In this document: positions 1,434 to 35,284 of the stretch, piece after piece
Position numbering within the stretch: position 1 is the first letter of the stretch
Layout: each line of letters begins with the position of its first letter
Source of the DNA: a virus
Lineage: Duplodnaviria; Caudoviricetes
Reading direction: 5' to 3' (one strand)
DNA length: 64,000 bases
Virus record (IMG/VR): IMGVR_UViG_3300010167_000010
Coordinates: 192,001 to 256,000 of that record
Translations under genes and position numbers: made by a program
The notes under the pieces: model-generated
What the model saw: the letters and a program-made list of their open reading frames with translations, nothing else
Database searches by the model: none
Told to the model about the DNA's origin: nothing

Positions 1434-2056
1434 CTGATCTTTTTAATTTTAATACTTCAAATAATAAATTTTGTTGTATTCTTCAAATTTCTAATAAATG
1501 TAACATAAGATGTTCTTGTTGTTATAACGAATTTTTAAGAAATTTATCTAACGCTGATGAAATTTTAAGGCCGGAGGTTTTAGAAAAAATTATTAAAACT
1601 TGCGTTGAAAGAGATATTCCTATGTACACAGGTGTAGGTGAACCGTTTGCTTGGTGGGAATATACTAGAGATATTTTAATACCAATGTTAAATAAATATA
1701 ATTCTAAATATATAATTTCTACTAACGGTCTTTGGGGAAATGATAAACAAATTATTCAAGAGGCTTTAACTTCTAATATAAAAAATATGTTTATTTCACA
1801 TGATTGGTGGCATAATCAATCTGTTCCTGTTGAATATATCAATAATATTTTAGAGGCTTTTAAAGACTCTTCTACAAAAGTTTATATAGCTTCTATTTGG
1901 AATAAAGCTCATCCTAAAGGAGAATATACTTATAAATATCATGACCAAATAGAATTTATTTGGTATGATTATGGAAATCAAGTTAATGGTAATACTATTT
2001 TGTCTCATGATAGGGAGGGTAATGTTAAAGATTATAATTTAAGAGGATTAGTTTAA
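1409..2056 (+). CDS. Short radical SAM protein, type A
   Basis: CNIRCSCC, GVGEPF, ISTNGLWG, ISHDWWH; no Cys-rich C-terminal domain. Confidence 0.88.
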   Translation: MFGTREELTDLFNFNTSNNKFCCILQISNKCNIRCSCCYNEFLRNLSNADEILRPEVLEKIIKTCVERDIPMYTGVGEPFAWWEYTRDILIPMLNKYNSKYIISTNGLWGNDKQIIQEALTSNIKNMFISHDWWHNQSVPVEYINNILEAFKDSSTKVYIASIWNKAHPKGEYTYKYHDQIEFIWYDYGNQVNGNTILSHDREGNVKDYNLRGLV

Positions 2057-2913
2057 TGGCTTTTTTAAGCAAAGAAGATTCTTTTAAAATTTATAATAAA
2101 TATGTTTTAGATAGAAGAAACATTTATATAGTTGTTTCATTAAAATGTAATTTAAGTTGCAAACATTGTAGTATGGAATCTAATTCAGATTTAACAATTA
2201 TGCCAGATAATTATATAGAAAAAATAATTAATCAAATAAATAATAAGTGGTCGGTTTGTCCTTTTGGTGGAGAACCTTTTTTATTTCCAGAAAAAATGGA
2301 AAAAATTGCAAATTTATGTTATGAAAAAAATATTTTTTTCCATTTAAATACTAACGCATTTTGGGCCTTTAATAATGATATCTTAAATCTTATTTCTAAA
2401 TTAAAACAAGTTTGTATTGGGTTATCTATTGATGAGTTTCATGAAATACCTATAGAAAATTATATACAAATTTTAGATTATTTTAAAAATAATAAAAATA
2501 TAACTTTTTGGTTAGAAACAGTAAAAAATCATGAAAATGAAGAACGTTTAGATGTTTTAAAAGAAAAAGGAATAGAATATGTTTATTTGGTAGAAAATAT
2601 AAATCCAGTTGGTTATGCAAAAAAGAATTTTAAATTTGAAAATAAAATAAGAAATATTAAAACTTGTAATAATAGAGGATTTGAAATACGACCAGATGGT
2701 CAAATTTACATTTTATGTAATTATCATAAAAATTGCAAAGTTGGCCATATTGACAACGATATTTTTGAAAATTTAAGAAATAAATATTTTCGTAGAATGC
2801 CCAAATTTTTAACATCTAAACAAATAGAATTATGTTGCTTACCTGATGAAATTCATAATAAAAAATGGGATGATCGTTTTTATATTGAAGTACTTTCTGA
2901 TTCAGTTACTTGA
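2056..2913 (+). CDS. Radical SAM protein with Twitch/SPASM-like C-terminus, type B
   Basis: CNLSCKHC, GGEPF, TNAFWA, SIDEFH; C-terminal CNNRGFEIRPDGQIYILC...VGHI. Confidence 0.9.
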   Translation: MAFLSKEDSFKIYNKYVLDRRNIYIVVSLKCNLSCKHCSMESNSDLTIMPDNYIEKIINQINNKWSVCPFGGEPFLFPEKMEKIANLCYEKNIFFHLNTNAFWAFNNDILNLISKLKQVCIGLSIDEFHEIPIENYIQILDYFKNNKNITFWLETVKNHENEERLDVLKEKGIEYVYLVENINPVGYAKKNFKFENKIRNIKTCNNRGFEIRPDGQIYILCNYHKNCKVGHIDNDIFENLRNKYFRRMPKFLTSKQIELCCLPDEIHNKKWDDRFYIEVLSDSVT

Positions 2914-3356
2914 ATTTGCTCTTTTACCTGTAATTTATGAAGTAAATTCATCAAAGTATTTAATCCAACTAAAACATCTGTACTTGCAGTAGTGTTTACT
3001 TCTCTTATGTTAGTTTGCATGTATTGTGGTGATAATTCGCGTTGTTTTTGAGCTAATTCATTTTGTTGTGCAGCTGTAAGTAATTGCATTGTTGGTGCAA
3101 CAAGTTTAGATATTAAATCATTTTTATTAGTTGCAGCTGAAGTTGTTAAAGCAATGAGTTCGGTATTCTTAAAATCTGGTAATCTTTTTCTTACTTCATT
3201 TTTAAGATCTTTTTGATAATCATCTTCATCAATAGCCATTTGAAACGTATTATTAAGAAAACTGGCAAGAGTACTTTCTATAAGTTTTACAGGTGTTGAT
3301 TTTTCTGCTATTGCATGTATTTGTTCTTCTGTTACAATTAGTTCATTATCTGCCAT
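2880..3356 (-). CDS. Hypothetical protein
   Basis: 158-aa ORF with ACTAAATA 4 nt upstream of ATG. Confidence 0.7.
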   Translation of the reverse strand: MADNELIVTEEQIHAIAEKSTPVKLIESTLASFLNNTFQMAIDEDDYQKDLKNEVRKRLPDFKNTELIALTTSAATNKNDLISKLVAPTMQLLTAAQQNELAQKQRELSPQYMQTNIREVNTTASTDVLVGLNTLMNLLHKLQVKEQIQVTESESTSI

Positions 3357-3380
3357 ATAATATTTAGTTAATCTAAATAT

Positions 3381-3677
3381 ATGATAGATATGGTCAAAAA
3401 AGAGTTCAATTTTATTGCAGATAAATTAGCATTAAATATGGATTGTTCTAAAGAAATCGATGAAACTTTACAAATTATAGTTCTCATGGCTTCCGATAAT
3501 ATAGTTGGACAATTAAATAATACAGAAACAGAAAACAAAATTAAAAATTTTATGACATATATTGTAGATATATTTAATAACACTTGTGGAAATTTTCTAG
3601 GTTCTAGATTAGAAGTTGGGATATCTAGAGACATTATGGGAAATATTAGTATATCGTTCCTTTCTATTAAGAAATAA
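3381..3677 (+). CDS. Hypothetical protein
   Basis: 98-aa ORF divergent from 2880-3356, preceded by AGTTAAT. Confidence 0.6.
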   Translation: MIDMVKKEFNFIADKLALNMDCSKEIDETLQIIVLMASDNIVGQLNNTETENKIKNFMTYIVDIFNNTCGNFLGSRLEVGISRDIMGNISISFLSIKK

Positions 3678-3708
3678 TCCGACCTTTCATAACTTTAACT
3701 AATTATTT

Positions 3709-6700
3709 ATGGAACTATTTACTCCTAATTCAAAATACTATCAAAAGGTATTAGATTCTTATACTTCTTCAGATGAATTTATAGCTAACAAAAGAGTTCA
3801 TTTTAATAACGAAATTCCTCCTATAGATTTATATGATATGGTTCACTCTATGATGAGAAATGACCTTTGGAAGTGGTTTTTAGGCTCTTCGTATCTATCT
3901 TATGATATAAATTATAATGAAGCTACAAATGGTTCTGAAATTTTTGATAAAGAGGGAATGATTATGGAAGCCTCTATATCAAAACTTATGAATGGTATCA
4001 GATCTCAAGATTACGGACCAATACCTTATTACAGCCACACTAAAAATGGAACATCTCTTATAAATCCAGAATATCATAGATTAGAAATTAATGGTGTATT
4101 TTTACCTGAAGTAGATTTTATGCTTCATGAAGGATATAGATATCTTAATGTGTTATATCCAGATCATCCAGATTTTATAAATATTTTAACTACAAATGAA
4201 ATAAATGATGAAATAACTCAGGCAGCTGCATTAGTTCATTATAATCCAAATTGTATATTTTTTGATTGGCTAGCTACGGAATTAAATTTTGAATTAGATG
4301 ATTTAGATTTACCTCGTGCTGGTAGAGAAGAAGCAACTAAACTTAAAATTCGTAACTTAAAAAACAATGCTTTTAGAAGAAAACTTTATGGGGCAAAATC
4401 TGGTTATTGGCAATTTGGTAGTGAGATATTCCAACATATAACTATACATCCAGTAGCAGAATATCTTCCATTTAAACCTGTTATAAGAGAAATGTTTGCT
4501 AGATCTTTTCATGTACCTTCTAGACATATAAAATGGTTTAGTAAAATCTATAAAAAACCAGATGAATTTGTTGATAGATCTATAAATAAATTTAATTTAC
4601 TTTATAAAAAATTATTTAGACTTATAGATTGGAATAATGTTAGTTATGATTATTTAAACGAATATGTTCCACCGGAAAAAATATGGGGAACTGCATATCC
4701 AACACCTTATTCATTATATGATGTATACGAATATCCAGCTGAACGAAATGCTTATATGTCGCTATCTATTCAGAATGATTTTTATGTTGGTCAAAAAATT
4801 ACTATAAATGGAAACCCAGCCTTTATAAATGGAATGTGGTCTGAAGATTCTTATCGAGTTAAAGTTAGATTAGTTTATGAAAATGATGAACTTGTAGATC
4901 AACGTTCTTCTTGTATTCAACAAACTTTACATGAATCATTAACTAAAATTCATCTAGATAGTCCAGCATACCCAATTTATATTCCTTTTCAAGTTTATAG
5001 GGGAACTGAGTATACTTTAAATAAAATTTTAGAAATTAAAAATGAAATTAGACAAGAAAATAAAGTTATAAAAGAAAAAAATAAAGAGATAGATAATGAA
5101 GAAGAGCATTATCCATTATTAGAACGATTAGATTTAACTGATTATGAAAATGCTTTATTATCTACAAGTAACCCTTTAACTAGATCTATAAAAGAATTAT
5201 ATAAACTTCTTCCAGACCATACTATTTGTAATTTTGCTCTTAACCCATATCAAGATGGAAACTTATATTTACCTGCATCTCAATTTTTAACTTTATATCC
5301 AGAATGGTTAAATATAACTACAAATAGAGATGATATTCATAATCCATATTTAGTTTATGGTGCAACCCCAATGTCAGAAGATGGTTTTGTAAAGAAAGAA
5401 GATTTAATTATAAATGATTTAATTTATAATACTTATGTTTCTGAAATAGTTGGAATAGAACCTGGTCTTATAAAAATGAGAGTAGAGAAAGCTGAACGTC
5501 TTACTAAAACACAAACTGATATTATTGATGAGATAAATAATTTAGAAAATGCTAAATTTGGTATTATAATTCAATTTGATATTGGGAATGATTTAGTTAG
5601 AAATAAAAAAGTAGTTTTATTTGGAAAACCAAAATTTGATTATATTGCATTAGAAGGAAGAGATGATGGTTTATTTCAAATTACTTATATAACTTTTAAT
5701 ATTGTTGCTATCCCAAAAATTAAATCTCATAATTTATTAAAAGCACTTTATAGAGATTATGAAAACCAAGCTTTACATAAATTTAAAAACTTAGAAATAC
5801 TTTTTGGTGAAGAAGATGGTGAAGCAAGTGAAATATTTAAGAAAAATCATCGAAAATATAAAAACATAACTGATAATTTTGAAAATCTTAATTTTATAAG
5901 AGAAGATTATCAAACAAAGTTTAAAAATTTTAATGATAACATTTTAAGATTAAACAATAGATTTAAAAGCGAAATTTTTAGAAATGTAGAAGTAAGTGAT
6001 GGGCCGATTAGATCATTACAAACTAATTTACGTTCTTTATTAAGTAGTTTTATAAATGTTAGTAATGAATATATTACATCTAATATTGGTAATTTAGAAA
6101 ATGTTAGCTATTTTTGTGAAAGAATAAGAGTCTTAATTCAAAACTTTACATTTAATGACGCTATAACAAATGATATGGCTTTATTATATGAAGATTTAGC
6201 AAAATTAGACATAGAAATAAAAAATTTAGAAAAAGAAAATGAAACTTTAGGTGATTTAAATCAGATTATAGCTAATGCTTATGAAAATAGAAAAATAATT
6301 GAACAAATTATAGAAAAAAGAGAAATTATAATCTTATTTTTACAAGAAAAAATAAAATTAGATAACAATTTTGTATCATTTATTTCTGTTATAGATAGTT
6401 TAAATTATAATGACAATATATTTAATTTTATAGAAGAATGTAAAAAACAAGTTACTATTATAGAAACTTTTATAAATGAGTTCGAATCTAATTTCTTATT
6501 TGAACAACCACAACTTTTTAATTATTATAATGGTTTAATAACTCTTTTAAAAGACAAAATATCTTCATATGATAATCATATTATATATCTTAATGAAACT
6601 TTTAGTAATATAAAAGATTTAATTACCATAATTATAGATAATTATTATCTATCGGAAAATAAACAAAATCTCTTAAAACTTTATTTAGAAAAATTTGTTA

Positions 6701-9700
6701 AAAATGTAAATGATAATGATTTATTATTTAAAAATGTTTTATTTATAGAAGCATACAATAATTTATTATCAATAATTGAAGAATACAATAGTTATTATCT
6801 CCCATGGCTTTTCTGTGAAATTGCAATAGACTTAGACAGGGATTATTATTTAAACTTAGATTCTAATAGATTAAGTAATGAAAAGAGAATAGCTCTTAAT
6901 AATATAAATAGAATTGATTTAATTTTAGATGAATACTTACCAAATAGAGGATTTTTACTTAACCCATTACCATCTGATATTTATATGCGAACAACTGATG
7001 ATGAATTATCTTCTTATTCTTTATTGAATCATCAAGACAGATTTATTGGTACATTATCTATATCATTAGATAAATTTAATGAATTTTTAGAATATAAAAT
7101 TGAAGAATTATACGGAACAGAAGGAGTTATAGAAGATTATACTTTTGGTTCATTAAATACAGCTTCTATTGTAAATAATAATTTAGATATTATTAAACCA
7201 TCAGGAGATTTTTTCGAATCAATAGACACATCAGATAATTCTAATATTTTAGAATTATCTAATTATATTAAAAAATATGAATTGGAAAAATATCATTATT
7301 TAACTTTAAATAAAGATATTATAAAAATTGTAGATAGAACTAATAACAGAAGATTTTCTTTTGCTGTTGCTGGTTTCTTAGAATTATTTTTACCATACGA
7401 AAAAAGAAATAATTTTAGAGGCGAAGCATTTGTTCATAATAGAATAGAGATAAGAGGAATAACTACAGCTGGATCAAAAATTATAGATTTTATTGATGAT
7501 GAGTCTAGATTTAGAATGGCAGCATTATCAACAGGTGATGAAGTTATAGGACCAACAATAGAAAATGACATATTTATTGAAGCTATAAATAACGTTAGAC
7601 ATTTTATTACAGTAAGTGAACCATTAAATGTAACTGGAGATTTTGTTTTAACTTTCTTAACTAAAATGAATTTACATGCTAAAGATATAAGTAAAAACTT
7701 TTTTAGATACAGAAGAGAATTGTCTCGAAATGAACTTATAGATACTGGTTCTATATTAGATCATTATGCTTATGGTGCTGAAGGGTCAAAATATCCATTT
7801 ATATCTAGTGGTTTTGTAAATAGTGTTGTAGATACTTCAAAATATAAAGAAATAACTTTAAAGCATTTAAGAGAACAATCAGTATATAGACGTTTTTTTG
7901 AACAACACGTTTGGGATTTACACAATTTTGGTGAAGATTCAATGACACATTATACTATACCATCTGTAATAAATTCTAGTGGAGATTTATTTTTAGAAGT
8001 TGGTGCTTATAAAACTTATAAAGAATTAAATAGAGATAAACAGAATTATTTAACAGACGGAAATGGAACTTTTAAATTTACAAAAGATCGAGAATATATA
8101 ATGAAAAAAGAAATTCTAGATTATTTCCAAGATTATTTACTAGAACTTTCTAGAGCTTCTGATAAAATAAATATTGGTGTAAATATAAATGCATTTACAC
8201 ATTCAAACGGTACAATATCTCAAATTCCAGATGCAAAATATTCTGATCCAAATATTGACTTAAGATTTTTTACTTATGGTTGGACAGATCAAACAATGCC
8301 TTATTATGTTGATATTGGTATTGGAAAATTAGACGAGTTTTCTAGAACAGGACCAGTTGATGCACAAGCTAAAACATATGAACCTAGATCTTTTTGGAAT
8401 CATGATGTATATGATAATACTTATTTAACAAAATATAAAGATTTAAAATATCAATCTGAAAAAGGAGCATTATCTTATCAAGAATTAAAAGAACAGGGAA
8501 TTGATTTAAGAAAAGCTGATAGATCATTATGGGGAAAGAAAACATTTGAAATAAATAATGAAGCTGATGTTGATCCAATTTATAGTATTCATAGACCAAT
8601 AATGAGAGTTTATCTTGGCGAATATGAAGTTCAAAAATCTATAACATTTGATAATCATTTAACTAGAAGATATACAACTGTTCAATTTTCAGTTATAAAA
8701 CAAGTATTTAAAAATCTTGTTAAAATGAATGAAGAAAAATTAAAAATAGTAAATAAAAAGTTTTTTGAATTAAATATTTTTAGAAATATTTCTTTAAATA
8801 ATTTGAGAACAGTAGATGAAAATGGTGATGATTTACATGTAATTGTTGAAGGACAATATCTTAATTTTAAATATGAGGGTGTTTGGGTGCCAAGAGCTCA
8901 ATTTTATGAAAATAGAAATCAATATTATATACAATACCCACCTCCTCCAACAGATGCTAATAACATTTATTATTATTCTATTGCAGAAAGAATTCAATTA
9001 GTAGCTGTTATAGATGATCAAAATTATGGTGAAAATTCTGATATATACGAAACTACTGAAAGAACTTTTGAAACTGGAACTATTATAGTTTATGAAGATG
9101 AAAAATGGGTTGTAAAAGATTTTATATTCTCAGGTGTTTATGGTGATCAGGTCGCATTAGAAAATATTATGGTAAAGCCAGAAGGTGAAGAAGCCAGAGC
9201 AATAATTGCTAATGCTTATCCAGTATCTAATAATGATGGTTTCTTTACTAATCCAAAAATTACTACTAATAATGATGGTATTGAAGTTTCTACTATTGTA
9301 GAAGAATTAACTCTTAAACATAGATTACTTTTAAAATTACTTATAAATTTAGGTTTATTTACTGGATCAATAGCTAGAACACAATGTTATTCAGTAAAAG
9401 AATTATTAAGTATATATAATACTATCTTCACCCATAAAGAAGATTTAGAAATTATAACTGAAAAATTAAAAGAAGAAATTTTATTAAGAGTAAGAGAAGA
9501 ATTAGAATTAGAAGCACCAGATTTAACTGAAGAAGAATTTGAAGAAGAAATAATTAAAAGATTTGAAATAGAAATTGCTAAAGAAGAATTTGATTTAGAA
9601 ATACAGAGAAGATTTAGAGAAAAAGTTTTAGGAACTGATTATAATATAAACGATACTCAAATAGTAATGTTTCCTAGATCGTTCTCTAATGAATTTACTA

Positions 9701-12700
9701 ATGTTATTTCTAAAAATAATGTTTATTGGTTTAATTATGCTTTTGGGTTTGATTTATTACACGATTGTTTAATAACTCCTGGACAAAATATAGCATTAAT
9801 TTATTTAGAAAACGATTTTAAAATTATTTTATTAAATGAAAATAAATTTACATTTTTAATAGATTCAGCAAGAAAAATAAGAATTAATGAATACGAATAT
9901 TTCTTCTTTATTGGAAAATATGGTTATACAAGTTATCAAAGTGGAAATAATTTAATAACTAAGGATATATTCTTATTTGAAAAAATAGAAAAATATACTA
10001 ATGTTATAGATTTAAAATATAAAAACTTACTTAAAGGTTCAGTAGATATTAAAGTAGCGGTAATTCCACATTTTACAGTAGAGGGTTATCCTTATGATGA
10101 AAATAATGAATTAAAGTATGATGAAAATAATAATCTTGTTGAAGATATTTATGATATAACTCAAGATAATATTTATTATGATAATTTTAACGATAAACTT
10201 TATTCTTTTAATACTATTCATAATGAAAGAATAAAATTTGCTATTAAGCAAGAAGATAATTTATATTTTAAAAATTTATTATTTATATATGGCCAATATC
10301 AAAAATTAGGTGCAACCGTTGGTGGTCAGTTTGTAAATCAAGGTGTTATAACTCCAATTACTGGAATTAGATTTGATGCTGATACAGCTAGTTTATTTGA
10401 TAGAATATTAGAATTAGAACAAATAAATATTCGTTCCCAATTTAATGTAAACTTAGAATCTACTTTATTTTCTTCATATTGTAATATTGAAGGGATAATG
10501 AAAGGCATTTATATTAAAGATAGAAATGCTATAGATGATACTGATGTTTATATTAGCGTAAATTATAGAGACGATAGAGAACCAATTATTACTTCTAATA
10601 AATTAAGATTTTCTACTGAAATACAAAAATTAATGCCAGTCAGAACTTATAATAATGTAACTCAAAATTTCCCAGAATCTATAATAGATTTTGCTGATGC
10701 TAAATGGCCAGATGAACAAAAAATATATCCACCTATTATTCAGTGGGTTGATGTTACAAAATCTATATCAACTGATACAGACTCAATGGCTTTTAAATAT
10801 TTCAAAAATATGTTAGTATTAGAAGGTGAAATAAATATTTATCAACCTAATACTATAAATTTTGGAAAAAATACTAAATTAGCTGATTCATTAAATAATG
10901 TAAAAATAAGTGACGTTATAAATTCTATAGTTGGTATTTCTAATGTAAATACTACATCATATAATAATTATACTTTAACCAATTCTAGTTTTAATATTAA
11001 GTTTATAGATTTTAATAAAAATATAATGATCTTTGTAGCTGATAACGCTATTGGATTAAAATATGTAAAATCGTTACAAGGTTTAGAAAAAGAAGTAGAA
11101 TTAGATGTGCAGTTTGCTGTTCCTAATTTTACAACCGGAACAACTGTGGACTCTTTAACTTGGGATGAAAATATAGATAAATGGGTTATTAGTGTTTCTA
11201 ATCCAAACGGTACTTCTGAAATGTATTCTATTACAGTTTCATCTGAAAATAATTTAACTATAACTCATTCAGATTATTTTATTGAAGAAATATATAATGA
11301 AAAAGGTATTGATATAAATACTTATCAATTTGTAACTATAAAAGATAAAGATTTTGGTGATAATAGATGGGATAATCATAAAACAGTTTTAGCAAGAGAT
11401 GTTTCATTTATTTCAGTACCGATAAGAGATGTACAAAAAGAAACTTTCTTTGCCCCAGAAAATTTTTCTACTTCAAGTAATTTACAATTAAGTAATTCAT
11501 TAGGAAATCCATTAGGTTGGCCTGGTTTAAGAATTTCTGGTAATAGTGGTGTTATTCAAAGTAGAACAAGAATTAATGTTCCTGCAAATGATTATAAAGT
11601 ATTAAGTTTTTCTGTTAAAAAATTAGAAGGAACTGCTGGTGCTCTTATGTCAGCTAATTCTATATCTATCGGTATTCAGACACCTTCATTTAATACTCCA
11701 GCTGATATAGATCAAATTTGGGTATACGATAAAGTTATTCAACGATGGGTTGTTACTGATAATACTCAAGATTTTTATAATTTTATTTCAAATTATAATT
11801 CTACTGAAATTGCAAATGTAGTTACTTATTTAGTCGGCCATGAGTTTGGTAGATATTATGATGTTACAAATAGAGATAGTATTTTTGGTGGACAATTTTT
11901 ATGGAGATTACCAAGACCAGATGTTAATGAAAATATAATAGTTGCTGCTGTAGTTTGTAGACAAAATATAACTAATGTAACTTTAGAAATAACAGTAAAT
12001 AATGATGGAACTACTGGAATAGGACAATTTGATATATTAAATATGTTTGTTTCTACAAAGAAAGAAGTTATAACACATAATAGAACTATAACTAAACAAA
12101 TCTTTGGTGGGTTTCCGCAAGAAGGTATTTCAGAAGAAAACTTTCCCGGAACTATAACGGAGGCCGCGCCATTCTTTATTGGTGAAAGACCAGCTAATGA
12201 TATTTATAACGATAATATTTATGAAGAGGGCCCTTATAATCCTTTAATTAGAAGTGATGATACTTCTATAGAATATCTTTATGAAAAATTTAGAGCTAGA
12301 AGATGGGTAGATTATAATATATTTGATAATCAAGTTATTATTATTGGTTCAACTATATTCTTTTATACTCCAACAAATTATTATTCTCCAATAGCAAATG
12401 GGGAAGAACACTTAAATCTCGATTTAATAACTTCAGAAGGAAGAGACGTATTAGTACCAACTGGAGTAACAGAAGAAAATCATTGGAAGCGCGCTGAATT
12501 ACCTTCTGTATTTAATGGTACATATCAATTATTTAATGAGATGACATTAGATGAAGCATATACTTTAGTTAATGATCAAAGAGATATTACTTTAGCTCAA
12601 ATAACAGCAATTGCAAACGCGGCAAGAGAGGGAATGGATGCTGATTCTCAAAACGCCATCAGTATAGTTTATAAAGCTATTTCTGATTGGATAACTGCAC

Positions 12701-15700
12701 ATCCAGTACAATATTATCCAACAGATGAACTATGTCCAATAGATATTATTGAAAATGATATTACTTTTATTTATAATGAAAAAGGTAAAATACCTAGATT
12801 CTTTGAAAATAATAGTGGTTATCATGAAAAATGGAGATCATCTCAAGAAGTAAAATTTGAATTAGGTTTAACTACTTCTGTTTATTTAACTCGACAAAAT
12901 TATTTAAGATACTTAGCAGATTATTTTTCAGTAATTTGTGGTGCACAAAGATACATTTATTATTTTGAGCCAGGTGGAATAAAAGATGTTAAATTAACTA
13001 ATGCTCAACTTATTATACAAAATATTTATGATGATATTATTTCATTCCCATTAAATAAAGCAACTTGTAGAGATGAAATTGAAAATTATAATAACTGGCA
13101 TATTAGTAATATGGCGCCAGAATATGTATTTAATTCTACAGAAACTTCTTTTGAAACTAGAACGGTAATGGTTGGAAATGATACATTTACTATTGATTCA
13201 TTCCCAGTTCAAAAACCTCGAAAAGCTTTTGAAATAATGGGTAAATACATAAATAATAATGTTCAAATATATGCCGGCTATGTAATGGCTAATGAAGATG
13301 TATTAAATGTTTATAATAAATTTGGGGCCCAGGGACCTAATCCAGATTGGTCACAATTAGAACATATTATTAGATTATTCCCAAATAGAATTAAATTAAA
13401 TGGTGAATTTAATAATCCAAGTACTTCATTTATAGTATTTGGAAAAAAATATCCAGCAATATTTTATAGTGATAATAATGGACAATCATTTAATCAAGTT
13501 AGAATACCAACAAATGCTATTACTAAAAGCTCACATGACTATGAAAATAATGCGTCAGCTGATCCCCCAGATATTTGGTGTGATTCAGTTTATAAAATTG
13601 GAAATAAAATAAATGTAATATATAAATCTCCTTCTTCATCTGCTAGTGCTAATATTTTAGGTTATACTACATTTACTATAAATGAACAGGAAACAAATTC
13701 TTTAATGGCTTTTGATGGGGAAAATTTTATTTATACAGCAACTGATTTAGAAAATATTACTATAAATAATTTAGCGAATTCTTGGAAAAACTTTAATATT
13801 AATTTCTTAAATGGTGTTTTAGTAGCAAGAGACCATGTATTTCCACATTATATTGCTAATCCTGGACATAGATTTTTATTAGAAGATCAGTATAATCTAA
13901 TGCCATTATCTGGAGAACAACGAATTATAGAAATTGGTGATGATTTTATCAGATACACTAATGCAGTTGATCCAGCTGATAATGAAGAAATATTAAGAGT
14001 ATTAGTATCAATAGACCAAACTGAACTTATAGAAAATCCAACAATCTATCTCGATTATAAAGAAGAATATTTAGATTCTAATGGTTATCTTTTAGTTAAT
14101 CATATTAAAGAAGTTGATGATCCTACACAAGCTAATAGATTATATTCTCCTCGTGAAGCTATGGTTTTAAGACACCCAAGTGATGCTGATTTAAGTAATG
14201 TTTATCAACGAGAAGTTTTACCAATAAGAGGTATTCCAGCTATTTCAGAAGATGCTGGGAGATCTATTTACAGATATCATGATCCAATTGTAGATTCAAA
14301 AGGTAATGAAATATATAAATATATTGAAGCAATAAACTTTAATAATCAAACAATTTATTTATGTCAAGCTAATGGGAATTATCTCGTATTCAGAGACTCT
14401 TCTTCTAATCATAATTATTTTACATTAGAAACATTAATAAAGGAAAATATAGATTATCAAACTTTAGTTCCTGCGCCTGTTTTAGTTCCAGGTTTTAAAG
14501 CTGAGGAACATGACATATTTGGTGATTTATTAAATGATTTAGATAATAAACAAATTCAATTTTTAGATTTTGATGGTTCTAATCCAAAATTATTTATTAG
14601 TTTACCAGATATTAAAACAGTAATAGATTATCTTGTTAGTGAAGAAGATGACGAAAAACGATTATTATATAAATGGGCTTATAATTCAGACCCATCTTGG
14701 GTAGGAACACCTGTCGGTTATGTATTAGATATAAATAAAGTAGATGACGAAGGTAGAACACAATCATTTATATTAAATCCATTTAGAATTGGTGAAGATT
14801 TTATTAGAGCTGTAGATTCTGTAGAACAATTTGAAGGACCTTTTGGACCAATTTATGGTAAAAGATTATCTTCAAGATTTGCTCCATTTAGATGGAAAGA
14901 TGAATATTATGTTTACGATTTAGTAACTTCAACATTATTATTAAAAGAAAATAATAATTTCTATATGAATATTTCTATGCCATATCAATTTGCAAACGGA
15001 CAAATATCTTATGATAATATAACTTTTGAATGGGCTAATCATAAACGAAGAAGTGATGATACTGAATTCGAATATATAGAACCAATCGAAGATTTACAAC
15101 AATTTAACGGTATTTATATAAAACCTCGTGGTTATGGTGGGTCAATGCATAATGAAAACTTTATTTATGAAAGACCAGAACTTATAGATTATAGAGCATT
15201 TGAAAGAAAACTTGTAGAAAATAAATTTGAAGAATATATTTATTTAAATGATAGAAATGGAAATAAATATAATTCTAAAAATGGATTATTCTGGTTATCA
15301 ACTAATAACGATGTTAAAATAAATTATAATAATCTTATCAATAAAGTAAATAAAGTTAAATTTTATCCAGATGCAATTGGTTATGAAGGTAATGAAACCC
15401 ATCCAGATGGATTATATACTGAATATAATGTTTTCAAATTAGAGCAAGCACCAATAGAAGTATATACACCAAAAAATACTATTTGGTTTAATTCACCAAC
15501 TATTAGACAACCCGTAACAACGCAATCAGATTCTGGCCCAGAAATTTTACATTCTTCTGGAAGACATCAAATATTATTAACTTTATTTAGAATAATAAAA
15601 GCTGGTTTAACTGTAAACGAATCCTTAATTTCTGAATACGAAATTGAAATAAGAGATTATAGAAATAGACCAATTAGATTACCAGAAGGAACTTCTATTA

Positions 15701-17724
15701 TTTACGAAAATGGTAGATTATTATTTTTATATGATGATACGTTTATATATTCAGAAGAAAATCTTCCAGTATTTGACCACGATTTAATTAGAGTATTTAT
15801 TAAAGATGAGAATGGTCAAACATTTAATTATGATTTAAATGTTGCTCCAAAAGAAGAAACAGAAATTGGAAAAATATTAAATATAAATAGAATAGAGTTC
15901 GATAAAGAAGAATTATATCACTTAAATACTATTACAATAAATTTTGATGGTAGATCATTAAAATTTAGAGATAATAATGAACCTTCTTATTTTATATCTA
16001 TAGATTATACAACTAGAGAATTTATTAGATGGGAAAATAATGCTAATCAATTATTAGATTTTGAAGTTCAACTTATTGCAATAGATTATGAACAAGCAAC
16101 TAGATTTATGACTATAAATTCTCATTACGAATTTAAATTAGATGTTAGAAACTTTCATCTAGAATTATTACTAAATAGATCTTGGGCAACTACTATTAGT
16201 AACTTAAATGAAGTTCAATGTAGAATATATTCTAAAGATCAGCTTGTTTATAACCCAAATAGTACTACAAATTATTTAACAGGTCAATTACATTTTGAAT
16301 TTGATAGACAAAGAATTAGATTTGTATCTAATTATGTTAACTTAATAGAAAGTATTAAAGTTATAAATGAAATATTTGTAGATAATATAAATTTAGAAAA
16401 ATGGGTATATGTTGTAGATCAAAACGGCGAATATGAATTTAAACATACATCATTAATTATTGTTGATGGTCTTTATGGAAATATTTTATTAAATAAACCA
16501 GCATATAGAAACTTTAGAGATTTAGTAGACAAGTTAGATAATATAATTGAATATAAAGAAAGAAGAATTATTGAAACTTTTAATGGAAGAGTATTTAATG
16601 AAATTGTAAGTATTGCACCTAATTTTTCTAATATGAAATTAGGTAATTTAATAAATTACGATAAAGTAGATTTAAATACTGGTGATATTTTCTTTATTAA
16701 AATGAAATTACTCCCATTAAACACAATATATCCTCAATTAAAAACTTTAAATCATCCTGATTATATTTATCCAGTAAGTACGGTTGAAGCTAGACTTTAT
16801 GGTTTTGATAGAATATTTATTAATGAAAATTCATACGTTCCACCACCAATTACTATAAATAATATAATGTATAATTCTGAATCTTTACCATTATATTATA
16901 CAAATAATTGGCTTAACAAAGATGGTTTTATGATTTATTTAGCTGATAATGAAGGAAGATTTACTAGACCAACTGTTAGAAATAGAAGAGTAGAGTTTGA
17001 TGTATTAGGAAATGAATTAGGTGATTGTAGGGCTGATATTTATGGTAATATAGATCCTAGATTTAATCCATTAGAACCATTATATAAATCTTCAATAGAT
17101 TGGTTCAAATCAGAATTCTATATTGAAGGAAAAGAAATTAATCCATTTATTGTAAATATAAATATAAAAGATGTTTATGATGAAAAATTAAAAGACTTTG
17201 TACCTTCTGTAAATTTAACATCTCCAACAAAATTTGGTAATGATTTTATTCAACAAGAAGTAAGTAAATCTTATTTAACTAAAGTTGATAATTCTTTATT
17301 ATATCGTTATTGTAGAATAGAAGACGATTTAATTCAAAATTCTAAATTAGATATTATAGAACACAATAATGGTTTAATAAATTTAATTGTACAAGGTCCT
17401 TATGATACTTATCAATTTGAACAACATAAGTTTTTGTTTGGAATAAAATATTTTAATACGTTCTCAAGTATTGGTCCTTATAGATCAATATGGACTTCAA
17501 CTGTAGAACTTGAAAATAAAATAGATTTATCTTTTTATCTAAATACTAGAGAAAATATATTAGATAAGAATAATAGAGATTTTGGTGTTGTAGATATTAC
17601 TGAAATGGGATTATTTAATCAACGTGGTGAATTAGTTGCTTATATGACACACCCAATTGCTCAGTATCGCTCAGATACGCAGCATATTAGTTATAACTTA
17701 ATTGTAGAAGAAGTAGGTGCATAA
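3709..17724 (+). CDS. Giant (4671 aa) baseplate wedge / tail-associated structural protein
   Basis: C-terminal ITEMGLFNQRGELVAY resembles the (I)TE/REVGLF...G.LIA motif of baseplate and tail-collar proteins; Asp-box-like YSDNNGQSF; coiled-coil stretches; late-type motif upstream. Confidence 0.7.
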   Translation: MELFTPNSKYYQKVLDSYTSSDEFIANKRVHFNNEIPPIDLYDMVHSMMRNDLWKWFLGSSYLSYDINYNEATNGSEIFDKEGMIMEASISKLMNGIRSQDYGPIPYYSHTKNGTSLINPEYHRLEINGVFLPEVDFMLHEGYRYLNVLYPDHPDFINILTTNEINDEITQAAALVHYNPNCIFFDWLATELNFELDDLDLPRAGREEATKLKIRNLKNNAFRRKLYGAKSGYWQFGSEIFQHITIHPVAEYLPFKPVIREMFARSFHVPSRHIKWFSKIYKKPDEFVDRSINKFNLLYKKLFRLIDWNNVSYDYLNEYVPPEKIWGTAYPTPYSLYDVYEYPAERNAYMSLSIQNDFYVGQKITINGNPAFINGMWSEDSYRVKVRLVYENDELVDQRSSCIQQTLHESLTKIHLDSPAYPIYIPFQVYRGTEYTLNKILEIKNEIRQENKVIKEKNKEIDNEEEHYPLLERLDLTDYENALLSTSNPLTRSIKELYKLLPDHTICNFALNPYQDGNLYLPASQFLTLYPEWLNITTNRDDIHNPYLVYGATPMSEDGFVKKEDLIINDLIYNTYVSEIVGIEPGLIKMRVEKAERLTKTQTDIIDEINNLENAKFGIIIQFDIGNDLVRNKKVVLFGKPKFDYIALEGRDDGLFQITYITFNIVAIPKIKSHNLLKALYRDYENQALHKFKNLEILFGEEDGEASEIFKKNHRKYKNITDNFENLNFIREDYQTKFKNFNDNILRLNNRFKSEIFRNVEVSDGPIRSLQTNLRSLLSSFINVSNEYITSNIGNLENVSYFCERIRVLIQNFTFNDAITNDMALLYEDLAKLDIEIKNLEKENETLGDLNQIIANAYENRKIIEQIIEKREIIILFLQEKIKLDNNFVSFISVIDSLNYNDNIFNFIEECKKQVTIIETFINEFESNFLFEQPQLFNYYNGLITLLKDKISSYDNHIIYLNETFSNIKDLITIIIDNYYLSENKQNLLKLYLEKFVKNVNDNDLLFKNVLFIEAYNNLLSIIEEYNSYYLPWLFCEIAIDLDRDYYLNLDSNRLSNEKRIALNNINRIDLILDEYLPNRGFLLNPLPSDIYMRTTDDELSSYSLLNHQDRFIGTLSISLDKFNEFLEYKIEELYGTEGVIEDYTFGSLNTASIVNNNLDIIKPSGDFFESIDTSDNSNILELSNYIKKYELEKYHYLTLNKDIIKIVDRTNNRRFSFAVAGFLELFLPYEKRNNFRGEAFVHNRIEIRGITTAGSKIIDFIDDESRFRMAALSTGDEVIGPTIENDIFIEAINNVRHFITVSEPLNVTGDFVLTFLTKMNLHAKDISKNFFRYRRELSRNELIDTGSILDHYAYGAEGSKYPFISSGFVNSVVDTSKYKEITLKHLREQSVYRRFFEQHVWDLHNFGEDSMTHYTIPSVINSSGDLFLEVGAYKTYKELNRDKQNYLTDGNGTFKFTKDREYIMKKEILDYFQDYLLELSRASDKINIGVNINAFTHSNGTISQIPDAKYSDPNIDLRFFTYGWTDQTMPYYVDIGIGKLDEFSRTGPVDAQAKTYEPRSFWNHDVYDNTYLTKYKDLKYQSEKGALSYQELKEQGIDLRKADRSLWGKKTFEINNEADVDPIYSIHRPIMRVYLGEYEVQKSITFDNHLTRRYTTVQFSVIKQVFKNLVKMNEEKLKIVNKKFFELNIFRNISLNNLRTVDENGDDLHVIVEGQYLNFKYEGVWVPRAQFYENRNQYYIQYPPPPTDANNIYYYSIAERIQLVAVIDDQNYGENSDIYETTERTFETGTIIVYEDEKWVVKDFIFSGVYGDQVALENIMVKPEGEEARAIIANAYPVSNNDGFFTNPKITTNNDGIEVSTIVEELTLKHRLLLKLLINLGLFTGSIARTQCYSVKELLSIYNTIFTHKEDLEIITEKLKEEILLRVREELELEAPDLTEEEFEEEIIKRFEIEIAKEEFDLEIQRRFREKVLGTDYNINDTQIVMFPRSFSNEFTNVISKNNVYWFNYAFGFDLLHDCLITPGQNIALIYLENDFKIILLNENKFTFLIDSARKIRINEYEYFFFIGKYGYTSYQSGNNLITKDIFLFEKIEKYTNVIDLKYKNLLKGSVDIKVAVIPHFTVEGYPYDENNELKYDENNNLVEDIYDITQDNIYYDNFNDKLYSFNTIHNERIKFAIKQEDNLYFKNLLFIYGQYQKLGATVGGQFVNQGVITPITGIRFDADTASLFDRILELEQINIRSQFNVNLESTLFSSYCNIEGIMKGIYIKDRNAIDDTDVYISVNYRDDREPIITSNKLRFSTEIQKLMPVRTYNNVTQNFPESIIDFADAKWPDEQKIYPPIIQWVDVTKSISTDTDSMAFKYFKNMLVLEGEINIYQPNTINFGKNTKLADSLNNVKISDVINSIVGISNVNTTSYNNYTLTNSSFNIKFIDFNKNIMIFVADNAIGLKYVKSLQGLEKEVELDVQFAVPNFTTGTTVDSLTWDENIDKWVISVSNPNGTSEMYSITVSSENNLTITHSDYFIEEIYNEKGIDINTYQFVTIKDKDFGDNRWDNHKTVLARDVSFISVPIRDVQKETFFAPENFSTSSNLQLSNSLGNPLGWPGLRISGNSGVIQSRTRINVPANDYKVLSFSVKKLEGTAGALMSANSISIGIQTPSFNTPADIDQIWVYDKVIQRWVVTDNTQDFYNFISNYNSTEIANVVTYLVGHEFGRYYDVTNRDSIFGGQFLWRLPRPDVNENIIVAAVVCRQNITNVTLEITVNNDGTTGIGQFDILNMFVSTKKEVITHNRTITKQIFGGFPQEGISEENFPGTITEAAPFFIGERPANDIYNDNIYEEGPYNPLIRSDDTSIEYLYEKFRARRWVDYNIFDNQVIIIGSTIFFYTPTNYYSPIANGEEHLNLDLITSEGRDVLVPTGVTEENHWKRAELPSVFNGTYQLFNEMTLDEAYTLVNDQRDITLAQITAIANAAREGMDADSQNAISIVYKAISDWITAHPVQYYPTDELCPIDIIENDITFIYNEKGKIPRFFENNSGYHEKWRSSQEVKFELGLTTSVYLTRQNYLRYLADYFSVICGAQRYIYYFEPGGIKDVKLTNAQLIIQNIYDDIISFPLNKATCRDEIENYNNWHISNMAPEYVFNSTETSFETRTVMVGNDTFTIDSFPVQKPRKAFEIMGKYINNNVQIYAGYVMANEDVLNVYNKFGAQGPNPDWSQLEHIIRLFPNRIKLNGEFNNPSTSFIVFGKKYPAIFYSDNNGQSFNQVRIPTNAITKSSHDYENNASADPPDIWCDSVYKIGNKINVIYKSPSSSASANILGYTTFTINEQETNSLMAFDGENFIYTATDLENITINNLANSWKNFNINFLNGVLVARDHVFPHYIANPGHRFLLEDQYNLMPLSGEQRIIEIGDDFIRYTNAVDPADNEEILRVLVSIDQTELIENPTIYLDYKEEYLDSNGYLLVNHIKEVDDPTQANRLYSPREAMVLRHPSDADLSNVYQREVLPIRGIPAISEDAGRSIYRYHDPIVDSKGNEIYKYIEAINFNNQTIYLCQANGNYLVFRDSSSNHNYFTLETLIKENIDYQTLVPAPVLVPGFKAEEHDIFGDLLNDLDNKQIQFLDFDGSNPKLFISLPDIKTVIDYLVSEEDDEKRLLYKWAYNSDPSWVGTPVGYVLDINKVDDEGRTQSFILNPFRIGEDFIRAVDSVEQFEGPFGPIYGKRLSSRFAPFRWKDEYYVYDLVTSTLLLKENNNFYMNISMPYQFANGQISYDNITFEWANHKRRSDDTEFEYIEPIEDLQQFNGIYIKPRGYGGSMHNENFIYERPELIDYRAFERKLVENKFEEYIYLNDRNGNKYNSKNGLFWLSTNNDVKINYNNLINKVNKVKFYPDAIGYEGNETHPDGLYTEYNVFKLEQAPIEVYTPKNTIWFNSPTIRQPVTTQSDSGPEILHSSGRHQILLTLFRIIKAGLTVNESLISEYEIEIRDYRNRPIRLPEGTSIIYENGRLLFLYDDTFIYSEENLPVFDHDLIRVFIKDENGQTFNYDLNVAPKEETEIGKILNINRIEFDKEELYHLNTITINFDGRSLKFRDNNEPSYFISIDYTTREFIRWENNANQLLDFEVQLIAIDYEQATRFMTINSHYEFKLDVRNFHLELLLNRSWATTISNLNEVQCRIYSKDQLVYNPNSTTNYLTGQLHFEFDRQRIRFVSNYVNLIESIKVINEIFVDNINLEKWVYVVDQNGEYEFKHTSLIIVDGLYGNILLNKPAYRNFRDLVDKLDNIIEYKERRIIETFNGRVFNEIVSIAPNFSNMKLGNLINYDKVDLNTGDIFFIKMKLLPLNTIYPQLKTLNHPDYIYPVSTVEARLYGFDRIFINENSYVPPPITINNIMYNSESLPLYYTNNWLNKDGFMIYLADNEGRFTRPTVRNRRVEFDVLGNELGDCRADIYGNIDPRFNPLEPLYKSSIDWFKSEFYIEGKEINPFIVNINIKDVYDEKLKDFVPSVNLTSPTKFGNDFIQQEVSKSYLTKVDNSLLYRYCRIEDDLIQNSKLDIIEHNNGLINLIVQGPYDTYQFEQHKFLFGIKYFNTFSSIGPYRSIWTSTVELENKIDLSFYLNTRENILDKNNRDFGVVDITEMGLFNQRGELVAYMTHPIAQYRSDTQHISYNLIVEEVGA

Positions 17725-30892: not shown

Positions 30893-31165
30893 ATGTTAAA
30901 GCGTGAGTATAATTTAACACAAGTTGTAAAAGCAATAAATAATAAAGAAGCAATTGCAATTTATAACGAAATAGAATATCATAATGCTGAATATGAAAAT
31001 AAAATGATTTCTTTATATAATGAAGGATTTTTGATAGTTTCAATTCCATTAGAAAAATTTAATCTTATAGAAATAAAATTTTGGGATGAAGATTTTCGTG
31101 AAAATATTTATGCCGGTACTTTAGATGAAGCAATTCAATATAAAATGGACGGGAGTATTAGATGA
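30893..31165 (+). CDS. Hypothetical protein
   Basis: 90 aa; CTTATATAATA just upstream. Confidence 0.6.
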   Translation: MLKREYNLTQVVKAINNKEAIAIYNEIEYHNAEYENKMISLYNEGFLIVSIPLEKFNLIEIKFWDEDFRENIYAGTLDEAIQYKMDGSIR

Positions 31166-31626
31166 GTTTACTTATGAAATTAGTAGATAAATCAGATCTT
31201 TTTAAATTAAATGCATATCAAATTAAAAACTGGCTAGAAGATGGTTTAACTGAAGAAGAAGTTATAGGTAGAATGTTTTTAAGACAACTTTCTAATTTTA
31301 TTTGGAATAAACATAATGAAGGTAATTTAGTTGATGAATTATATTTTAAAGAAGTAAAACAAGAATTAGAAAATTATAGAATTACTTATGTATCTTATAA
31401 TAATGAAACACAAAAATTTATATTAAAATCAGCTAGACCTGGTGTTATAATTGGAGTTAGAGGTTCTAATATAGATAAAATAGATAAACATCTTTTTAAT
31501 TGGGCTAAAGAAGAAAAAATTCCATATTCTGGAATTGCTCTTAAGGAAGATAGAAATCCACTTGAAAATGATATTAATTATTCTTTGAATATGTTTAGTT
31601 TGTTACATTCAGATCCAGATTTTTAA
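31162..31626 (+). CDS. Type II KH-domain protein resembling ribosomal protein uS3 N-terminal domain
   Basis: LKSARPGVIIGVRGSNIDKI...IALKEDRNP compared with uS3 [20 protein letters not shown]...INIAEVRKP. Confidence 0.7.
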   Translation: MSLLMKLVDKSDLFKLNAYQIKNWLEDGLTEEEVIGRMFLRQLSNFIWNKHNEGNLVDELYFKEVKQELENYRITYVSYNNETQKFILKSARPGVIIGVRGSNIDKIDKHLFNWAKEEKIPYSGIALKEDRNPLENDINYSLNMFSLLHSDPDF

Positions 31627-32689: not shown

Positions 32690-32695
32690 AATTAT

Positions 32696-32780
32696 GGCCG
32701 AGTGATGTAATTGGTAGTACATAGCAGACTTAAAATCTGCCGCCCGTAAGGGCGTGAGGGTTCAAGTCCCTCCTCGGCCA
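32696..32780 (+). tRNA. tRNA-Leu (anticodon UAA)
   Basis: Acceptor GGCCGAG/CTCGGCC, D arm ATGT/ACAT, anticodon arm GCAGA-CTTAAAA-TCTGC, long variable arm, T arm GAGGG-TTCAAGT-CCCTC; no encoded CCA. Confidence 0.95.
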
Positions 32781-32784
32781 ATTT

Positions 32785-34084: not shown

Positions 34085-35284
34085 ATGTCAGATAAAAAAA
34101 TGGCTTACGTCGTTGAAATAAAAGACCTCGAACCAATAGAAGGAAAAGATAGAATTGTTTTAGCTTCATTTACGAATTCAGGTTGGAGAGTTATTGTTCA
34201 GAAGGACCAATTCCAAATTGGAGACAAAGCAATTTATGTTGAAACAGATTCTATTCTTCCAATGTGGGAAGAATTTCAATTTCTAGAAAAGCGATGTTAT
34301 AGTACAAAACGAAAAGGATATCGTATTCGAACTATGAAACTTGGAGATGTATATTCTGAAGGTATTTGTTTTGATTTAAAAGGTTTTTATGGTCCACCAG
34401 GTTCTAAAATAGGTGTTCCAATTGACGCACCTCTTGATAGGGACTTAACTGAAATATTAAAAATACGAAGAATTGAAGATGAAGTTCCTCAAGATCCACC
34501 ACCAACGAAATCTAAATTTCAAAACTTTGTAAATAAATGGCTTTATAGATTATTTAGATTTAAATTTAAGAGATACGGTTTTATTGCTCAAGATTTTCCA
34601 TCTTATTTAATTAAAACAGATGAAACACAAGCACAATCTATTCCACAATTATTTGAAAAAATGAAAGGAAGAGATGTTTATATAACTTTAAAAATGGATG
34701 GTCAGTCTGTAACTATGGCAAATTATAAAGGAGTATTTTCTATATCTACTCGTAACAGAATGATTTATCAAAATAAGATTAAAAAGGCAGCAAGAGTATT
34801 AATTCCTAAATCAGCAGATTATTTTAGACAACATAATGTTCATGCATATCTTGCAGCAAAATACAATATTCCTCTTATTTTAAGTAAATATGATAATGTA
34901 GCAATTCAAGGTGAATGTTGTGGTCCCGGAATACAGAAAAATAGAATTGGATTAAAAGATTACGAATATTATATTTTTAGTTTCTTTGATATTTCTAAAA
35001 GAGAATATTTTAGCGGCCAAAAAATGATGAATTTTTGTTTAGAGAATAAGTTAATTACAGTTCCATTTATTGAAATGAAAACTTTTAATTGGGATTCTAT
35101 AAAAGAATTAGAAGAATATGCTCAAAGAGATTATGCTAGTGGTACTCCAGCTGAAGGTATTGTAATTAGGGGTTATGAACATTATAATGAATATATGCCA
35201 CAACCCCATAATAAGATGCATGCAATGTGTTCACTTAAGATGATTAATCCAAAATTTAAATTAAAATATCAGCAGGACGAATAG
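34085..35284 (+). CDS. RNA ligase, Rnl2 / DRB0094-like, with N-terminal OB-like domain
   Basis: KMDG (motif I), IQGE, PGIQKN, EGIVIR, LKMIN; N-terminal PIEGKDRI...GDKAIYVETDS. Confidence 0.88.
   Translation: MSDKKMAYVVEIKDLEPIEGKDRIVLASFTNSGWRVIVQKDQFQIGDKAIYVETDSILPMWEEFQFLEKRCYSTKRKGYRIRTMKLGDVYSEGICFDLKGFYGPPGSKIGVPIDAPLDRDLTEILKIRRIEDEVPQDPPPTKSKFQNFVNKWLYRLFRFKFKRYGFIAQDFPSYLIKTDETQAQSIPQLFEKMKGRDVYITLKMDGQSVTMANYKGVFSISTRNRMIYQNKIKKAARVLIPKSADYFRQHNVHAYLAAKYNIPLILSKYDNVAIQGECCGPGIQKNRIGLKDYEYYIFSFFDISKREYFSGQKMMNFCLENKLITVPFIEMKTFNWDSIKELEEYAQRDYASGTPAEGIVIRGYEHYNEYMPQPHNKMHAMCSLKMINPKFKLKYQQDE

Follow-up and report, generated by a model that had tools for sequence, protein, structure and literature searches.

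A phage protein with a uS3-type KH domain encoded near RNA ligase genes

Introduction

Homologues of ribosomal proteins that are encoded by phages are usually taken to be tools for the hijacking of translation. What, then, is the role of a phage protein that retains a KH (K homology) domain of ribosomal type, but has been stripped of all else that is ribosomal? The question is raised by a gene of a termite-gut jumbo phage, in the virus record IMGVR_UViG_3300010167_000010 (Duplodnaviria; Caudoviricetes), which is 329,018 bp in length with direct terminal repeats and a G+C content of 28%. Positions 192001–256000 of the record, a stretch of 64,000 nucleotides, are termed here the window, and coordinates refer to it unless they are given as genome or contig coordinates. 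The gene is found in the list of open reading frames (ORFs) at 31162–31626 on the plus strand and encodes a protein of 154 amino acids (P0001). These are referred to below as the KH gene and the KH protein.

An original prediction, made from the nucleotide sequence, placed this ORF exactly, recognized in it a uS3-like type II KH domain, and proposed that the product is an RNA-binding or ribosome-modulating factor. That interpretation is partly supported: the domain call was right, and the ribosome-modulating idea is weakened. The nearest known relative of the phage domain is the N-terminal KH domain of bacterial uS3, but P0001 is not a ribosomal protein, as every uS3 feature except the KH core is missing. 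In related phages the KH gene is found close to genes for RNA ligases, and this linkage, not evidence for a takeover of the ribosome, is the new and testable lead offered by the locus. The reading tentatively favoured here is that the protein may act as an RNA-binding accessory of phage RNA ligation or repair.

The KH protein and its family

The family was defined with HMMER, by searching 1.84 billion cluster representatives exhaustively. Thirty proteins were found at E <= 0.001, 22 of them at E <= 1e-10. All are between 84 and 219 amino acids in length, and there are no fused or long forms of the KH protein among them. One of the 30, P0027, is a true uS3 fragment and not a family member. Its 214 residues contain an exact internal duplication of approximately 90 residues of the uS3 N-domain, after which the sequence ends; the duplication is probably an artefact of assembly or gene calling. 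The family as a whole amounts to about 30 clusters of short proteins from termite-gut phage contigs, with 28–48% identity and conservation over the full length. This full-length conservation indicates a real, selected gene, and a chance ORF or an annotation artefact is thereby ruled out. A word-index protein search found no protein besides the query when the single sequence was used, and newly added only P0031 when the profile was used. There is no match in 50,697 deposited phage genomes, either by megablast with the region or by tblastn with the protein, and the PHROGs collection gives only a weak match to a family of unknown function. The family is represented by a single copy in the 329-kb genome.

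Four consensus blocks are evident in the family alignment: GRxFLRxxS near the N-terminus, ELxxYxITDIxY, RPGIxIGVKGxNI and IKLxEDxxPLxxDL. The best conserved part is the RPG-x3-GxxG segment. Among the 29–30 sequences aligned, I97 and G98 are invariant, and P93, G94, G101, E129 and D130 are conserved in at least 90%. The GxxG loop is G98-V-R-G101 in P0001 (31453–31464, plus strand) and GV[KR]G in 20 of 29 members, with K or R as the third loop residue in most. Two motifs were quoted in the original prediction, and both are present: residues 90–101 read SARPGVIIGVRG, and the downstream I.L.E...P corresponds to I125-A-L-K-E129-D-R-N-P133 (IALKEDRNP). In the N-terminal motif, G36, R37, F39, L40 and S44 are invariant in the eight closest members. 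The final residue is F, W or Y in 20 of 29 members and is often preceded by D or E, as in ..DPDF, ..EDWW and ..DDEF.

A structure predicted by AlphaFold2 with the family alignment (28 homologues) has a mean predicted local distance difference test score (pLDDT) of 93.4 and a predicted template-modelling score of 0.86, and supersedes a poor model made with the single sequence (pLDDT 54). In the model, P0001 has a type II KH domain as its core, with an N-terminal helical region before it and C-terminal helices after it. The N-terminal region (residues 1–58; 31162–31335, plus strand), which contains the GRxFLRxxS motif, has predicted helices at residues 3–10, 12–16, 18–26 and 31–52. The KH domain (residues 59–132; 31336–31557, plus strand) has the order alpha-beta-beta-alpha-alpha-beta, with helices at 62–71, 93–97 and 99–117 and strands at 74–80, 85–90 and 124–129. 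The Pfam KH_2 model, this predicted topology, hhalign and Foldseek all identify the domain, which is homologous to uS3 residues ~35–110. P0001 scores 25.8 bits with KH_2 against a gathering cut-off of 22 (E 9.7e-6), and 23 of 29 members match that model at E <= 0.01. Beyond the domain (31558–31623, plus strand) are predicted helices at residues 134–149 and a short, acidic tail of low confidence that ends in ..DPDF.

Relationship to uS3 and other KH domains

A search of PDB sequences with P0001 finds almost exclusively uS3 chains, and the 29-member family profile matches bacterial uS3 chains with up to 40.5 bits (E 2e-9), in alignments that start at residue ~19–33 and finish at 109–112. Profile comparisons by hhalign were made with 32 spirochaete uS3 N-domains and 13 Era KH domains. 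With the uS3 N-domain the family aligns at 98.4% probability (E 8.5e-15) over 75 columns, phage residues 59–136 with uS3 residues 35–114, whereas with the Era domain the values are 26% and 19 columns; uS3 and Era align with each other at 74%. Identity to uS3 is ~29%. Of the curated models, bacterial uS3 is matched by 28 of 29 members and two further uS3 models, NF003219 and TIGR01008, by 19 and 16, compared with seven for aCPSF1, five for Jag/EloR (NF041568; at 0.015 or worse) and none for Era. The KhpA/KhpB model PF13083 is matched by one member of 29, at 0.0093. In every member, the uS3 match is stronger than either of the last two.

The top 40 PDB matches by Foldseek are all uS3. VIA-align, an independent aligner, detects the type II KH fold in general and returns Z-scores of 5–6.6, a range that is common for this tool, for 4tps chain D, uS3, Era, NusA, aCPSF1, RbfA and DciA. 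Its best match is chain D of 4tps, a SirA-DnaA domain I complex (Z 6.6, rmsd 2.7 over 81 residues); this chain we take to be DnaA domain I.

The phage domain and the uS3 N-domain share the alpha-beta-beta-alpha-alpha-beta fold and are colinear over uS3 residues ~35–114. Both have a segment of the form (A)RPG-hhIG-x-[KR]-G-x-x-I, which is followed by a beta-strand I-K-h-K-E. A caveat applies, in that the second KH domain of the archaeal beta-CASP ribonuclease aCPSF1/FttA scores nearly as high over the core. The family profile gives it 36 bits compared with 40 for uS3, and there is a close match in the segment ItdI-Yd..t..v-I...-PG-hhIG-x-G. However, the match ends ahead of the last beta-strand, the 154-residue phage protein lacks beta-CASP and metallo-beta-lactamase domains and has no domain besides KH, and aCPSF1 is archaeal whereas the KH protein comes from a phage of bacteria. 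The original prediction had named clustering with non-ribosomal KH families as the result that would speak against it. Such clustering is not found, since uS3 is closest by every measure tried, with the aCPSF1 domain nearly equal to it. The phage KH domain is probably derived, ultimately, from the N-terminal KH domain of bacterial uS3.

Differences from uS3 and other ribosomal proteins

Outside the KH core the resemblance ends. The best NCBIfam match of P0001 is the bacterial uS3 model TIGR01009, but the score is 21.9 bits against a cut-off of 114.5 and the match covers model positions 41–100 of 212. The C-terminal domain of uS3 (Ribosomal_S3_C, PF00189), which the original prediction had reported missing, is absent from P0001, and the 329-kb genome has no match to it at E <= 1; all 14 control genomes match. 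This genome-wide absence of the C-domain rules out a split uS3 gene. The N-terminus was rightly described as unrelated, in that hhalign leaves residues 1–58 unaligned to uS3. The uS3 N-terminus, MGQK..P.G.R.G....W.S.W, is absent from the phage family, which has GRxFLRxxS instead. The MGQK... start is found in all 33 full-length spirochaete uS3 sequences; of the 34 extracted, the remaining one (L120) is 5'-truncated. The uS3 N-domain has a median isoelectric point (pI) of 9.9 and a charge of +9, in line with its embedding in rRNA, compared with a median pI of 5.6 and a KH-core net charge of about −3 for the phage family; the pI of P0001 is 5.4. Finally, the uS3 gene is a gene of the ribosomal operon, whereas the phage KH gene is situated among phage genes, beside those of RNA ligases.

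Ribosomal proteins encoded by viruses include bS21, bL12, the bL9 N-domain and HPF (Mizuno et al., 2019; PMC6375957), and huge phages encode S4, S1, S21 and L7/L12 (PMC7162821). Neither paper lists uS3 in its main text. The S1 domain was excluded from consideration in the former as non-specific to ribosomal proteins (PMC6375957), and the same caution applies to KH_2. The KH protein resembles phage bL9 in that both keep just the N-terminal domain of a ribosomal protein. It differs from the reported viral ribosomal proteins, which are near-full homologues of exchangeable proteins, in that it is highly diverged and falls outside uS3 membership.

A phage protein with a uS3-type KH domain is not without precedent, as comparable short entries are already in BFVD and the ESM Atlas. 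The best two BFVD matches, A0A8S5M7P8 and A0A8S5RY19, are uncharacterised proteins from uncultivated phages, of 134 and 174 amino acids, that have been named automatically 'ribosomal protein S3', and the ESM Atlas has several uncharacterised viral clusters of 129–162 amino acids named 'KH domain-containing' or 'S3 family'. These are viral, are similar in size and rank first in the viral libraries by structure or by features. Any relationship to the present family is probably distant, because tblastn of the deposited phage genomes yielded no family member. The case of P0001 is a warning against the automatic label 'ribosomal protein S3' for short phage proteins of this kind.

Linkage to RNA ligase genes

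The window has a gene for an RNA ligase 2.46 kb downstream of the KH gene and on the same strand (34085–35284, locus L014). Its 399-amino-acid product is a nick-sealing ligase of Rnl5 type (NgrRnl/DraRnl-like), with matches to PF21189 (the PHA02142 OB domain) and PF09414 (RNA_ligase) and to the Naegleria enzyme NgrRnl (PDB 5cot; E 7.5e-20). Orthologues of this ligase gene are found on other family contigs at varied distances downstream of their KH genes: 13 nt in L008/L009, 0.19 kb in L011, 0.2 kb in L010, 1.6 kb in L002 and 3.3 kb in L007. L012 has an altered order, in which the Rnl5-type ligase gene is followed by a gene for a 67-amino-acid protein and then by the KH gene.

The divergent subclade of P0012, P0014, P0022 and P0024 shows a second association, with a ligase gene of Rnl1 type on two contigs. 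The contig of P0012 has it 2.4 kb downstream of the KH gene. In L174 the gene order is metallophosphoesterase, KH, a 9-nt gap and Rnl1-type ligase; in L175 a metallophosphoesterase gene is found 0.3 kb downstream of the KH gene, after which the contig ends. Altogether, an RNA ligase gene is within 3.5 kb of the KH gene in all seven contexts that have that much flanking sequence, and in two shorter ones. The other immediate neighbours of the KH gene are not conserved.

L174 is collinear with the present genome at 302–310 kb, where the slot of the KH and Rnl1 genes is occupied by an unrelated ORF of 183 amino acids. In the present genome the KH gene is at 223 kb and the Rnl1-type ligase gene at 324.5 kb. 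The KH gene has therefore been juxtaposed with ligase genes of two families at different positions of the genome backbone.

Several smaller features accompany these loci. Between the KH gene and the ligase gene of the window there is an ORF of 210 amino acids (from 32057) with two C2H2-type zinc-finger matches and a weak match to a phage endonuclease, and directly after it a tRNA-Leu(TAA) gene (32695–32781). This region looks like an insertion of the homing-endonuclease type that separates the KH gene from the ligase gene here. In the Rnl1-linked subclade, DUF488 genes ('active N3a subclade') are near or adjoin the KH gene (L175 938–1339; L174 10399–10477). L008/L009, a contig of 214 kb from a related jumbo phage, has a mobile-element insertion at 1316–4863, directly upstream of its KH and ligase genes, with a resolvase gene, two IS605/TnpB-type (Cas12f1-like_TNB) genes and Y1 transposase fragments. 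Two divergent contigs have a small Phage_T4_Y07B-like gene together with the ligase and KH genes (L012 1484–1687; L174 7749–8006). In T4 the Y07B gene lies in the frd-gp32 region, and in the T4-like phage IME13 the Rnl5-like ligase gene is located between gp32 and frd. The Y07B-like gene and the IME13 layout hint at an old syntenic block.

RNA ligases of the phage

Three families of RNA ligase are represented in the phage genome, by one enzyme each. Besides the Rnl5-like enzyme of the window, there is an Rnl2-like ligase whose gene is followed by an ORF with weak similarity to AAA_33 kinases (genome 124726–125687, L013/L015) and an Rnl1-like ligase (genome 324507–325820, L017). The three ligases suggest an unusually large RNA repair repertoire. 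A homologue of calcineurin-type phosphoesterases is encoded at genome 307384–308061, after a flagellin gene; it is this same gene that precedes the KH and Rnl1 genes in L174.

RNA repair cassettes pair a ligase with end-healing enzymes, as with Pnkp and Rnl1 of T4 and with bacterial Pnkp, which has a phosphatase module of calcineurin type. The order metallophosphoesterase-KH-Rnl1 in L174, and the KH gene beside Rnl5 elsewhere, resemble such a healing-and-sealing arrangement to which an RNA-binding subunit has been added. They differ from it in that there is no adjoining kinase gene here, and the cassettes that have been described are not known to include a KH subunit.

Possible functions of the KH protein

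Perhaps the KH protein is an RNA-binding accessory of RNA ligation or repair; this is the explanation that we regard as the best available, although still short of probable. The protein would be a stand-alone nucleic-acid-binding protein, in which a uS3-type KH core has been combined with a phage-specific helical N-terminal region and an acidic, aromatic-ended tail. The GxxG cleft may hold a single-stranded or broken RNA, for example a tRNA cut by a nuclease or another RNA, and the protein would present this RNA to the adjacent ligase or otherwise cooperate with it. RNA binding is plausible given the conserved GxxG loop with its basic third residue. The C-terminus resembles a docking peptide, and the tail is a candidate for contact with a partner protein. 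We infer each of these elements, the binding, the cooperation and the substrate. If correct, the locus suggests that phages can take over RNA-binding modules of ribosomal proteins and use them to repair or process RNA. Ligases of Rnl5 type seal nicks, and their physiological functions have been termed 'uncharted' (PMC5397189, PMC4408790); the KH protein is a candidate partner for them.

A number of points weigh against this explanation. Five family contexts have no ligase gene, all of them on contigs of 3.2 kb or less. The linked contigs come from related phages, and part of the linkage is inherited synteny. IME13 has an Rnl5-like ligase gene and rnlA ~2.3 kb apart, within one stretch of 4.6 kb; the two associations may therefore go back to a single ancestral region and not be fully independent. 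The Rnl5-like ligase genes of IME13 and of a 735-kb phage were both checked and have no family member nearby, so the ligase does not need the KH protein. The family is also mildly acidic, an uncommon property in proteins that bind RNA strongly, although some acidic KH proteins, NusA among them, are RNA binders. A predicted complex of the KH protein with the Rnl5-type ligase scored 0.00 in both runs, which is not evidence either way.

An unlikely alternative, but the one that fares best, is a general RNA-binding regulator or chaperone, similar to KhpA/KhpB or to the KH domains of NusA. It would act independently of the ligase and control phage or host transcripts or small RNAs, with the proximity of the ligase gene being inherited synteny. 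The KH_2 fold with its conserved GxxG is in keeping with such a role, the weak matches to Jag/EloR and KhpA/KhpB point in this direction, and the gene is situated among many small genes of unknown function, as is typical of early or middle phage regions. Yet the KH gene has moved relative to the backbone and is nonetheless 9–13 nt from a ligase gene in two subclades, with two ligase families, and synteny alone hardly explains this.

A mimic of uS3 that modulates the ribosome, as proposed in the original prediction, is less likely again. Such a protein would bind the head of the 30S subunit or a partner of the uS3 N-domain, and would either take the place of part of uS3 or, as a decoy, bias translation in favour of phage mRNAs. 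The proximity to uS3 by sequence, profile and structure is in its favour, as is the GV[KR]G loop, which is common to the Treponema-type uS3 of the probable host group, the best scorers. However, it is the C-domain of uS3 that has most of the rRNA contacts and the mRNA-entry residues in 30S structures, and this domain is missing from the protein and from the whole genome. The characteristic N-terminus (MGQK..W.S.W) is lacking, the protein is acidic whereas the uS3 N-domain is strongly basic, and at ~29% identity, with a stem of ~2 substitutions per site, the divergence is large. There are no translation genes nearby, and the conserved neighbours are those of RNA ligases. Phages do carry ribosomal proteins, including the bL9 N-domain by itself, but those that viruses tend to carry are exchangeable ones, and uS3 is not one of them (PMC6375957).

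The mimic had also been linked to a phage with many apparently leaderless genes, and this premise fails. The start codon of the KH gene overlaps the stop codon of a preceding 90-amino-acid ORF (ATGA), and a Shine-Dalgarno-like GGGAG, read directly from the sequence, is found at 31151–31155 on the plus strand, 6 nt 5' of the ATG. The motif at this spacing argues against leaderless translation of the KH gene. Genome-wide, similar motifs precede 53% of 397 ORFs in a crude ORF call, compared with a background of 10%.

It is more doubtful still that the protein serves as an adaptor between proteins, in which a KH-like fold has lost its nucleic-acid binding and which resembles DnaA domain I or DciA, where helicases are contacted through this fold; its acidic-aromatic tip would then dock on a replication or recombination partner. 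Such a C-terminus, with an aromatic last residue in 20 of 29 members, recalls the acidic tip of SSB. Overall the protein is acidic, the top VIA-align match is the chain taken as DnaA domain I, with DciA also listed, and the equivalent region in T4-like phages adjoins gp32 and gp59. Against this, sequence homology is to the KH domains of uS3 and aCPSF1, with none to DnaA or DciA; conservation is highest at the GxxG and the RPG ahead of it, which is unexpected if nucleic-acid binding has been lost; and the VIA-align Z-scores are all in the range that the tool calls common.

Last, it is very improbable that the uS3-derived domain is a ribosome- or rRNA-recognition module directing the adjacent ligase to damaged translation machinery, for example to rRNA, or to tRNA on the ribosome, that defence nucleases of the host have cut. 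The two would then be a 'ribosome repair' pair of the phage, by analogy with bacterial PrfH-RtcB2, in which a ribosome-binding factor is paired with an RNA ligase; if true, this would be the first physiological context for Rnl5-family ligases.

Host and origin

The region of the window is present in termite-gut metagenomes of three studies, and there is partial overlap between these and the samples that yielded the contigs with family members. A locus search with eight family sequences found one further jumbo-phage contig, of 261 kb; the metagenome Ga0123356 has yielded this related viral contig as well as metagenome-assembled genomes of Treponema. The phage has a flagellin gene (L018:1495–2349; genome ~306.5–307.3 kb) whose product shares 63–68% identity with the FlaB proteins of Treponema and other Spirochaetota. 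The host is therefore likely to be a spirochaete, probably Treponema.

A search of 101 Spirochaetota genomes with the family profile detects only uS3 (21–47 bits) and no family member. The best-scoring uS3 proteins are of Treponema type (46–47 bits) and share with the phage family an unusual GVKG loop, present in 11 of 42 distinct uS3 sequences, and the IKIKE strand. The phylogenetic check suggested in the original prediction was carried out with uS3 sequences of Spirochaetota only. The family is monophyletic (Shimodaira-Hasegawa-like approximate likelihood-ratio test, 99) at the end of a stem of ~2 substitutions per site from uS3; its position among the spirochaete uS3 sequences is weakly supported (0.65 by FastTree). 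Union with the GVKG (Treponema-type) uS3 is not rejected in the approximately unbiased (AU) test of treekit (p 0.865), and five free or constrained maximum-likelihood trees are within 2.2 log-likelihood units of one another (AU p 0.27–0.63), with no placement rejected. Capture of the KH domain from the host lineage fits the shared loop, but the trees cannot show it.

Other features of the window

A scan for sigma-70 promoters is uninformative in this AT-rich DNA, with 69 sites against 64.5 expected. A single ORF of 4671 amino acids occupies positions 3709–17724 of the window on the plus strand.

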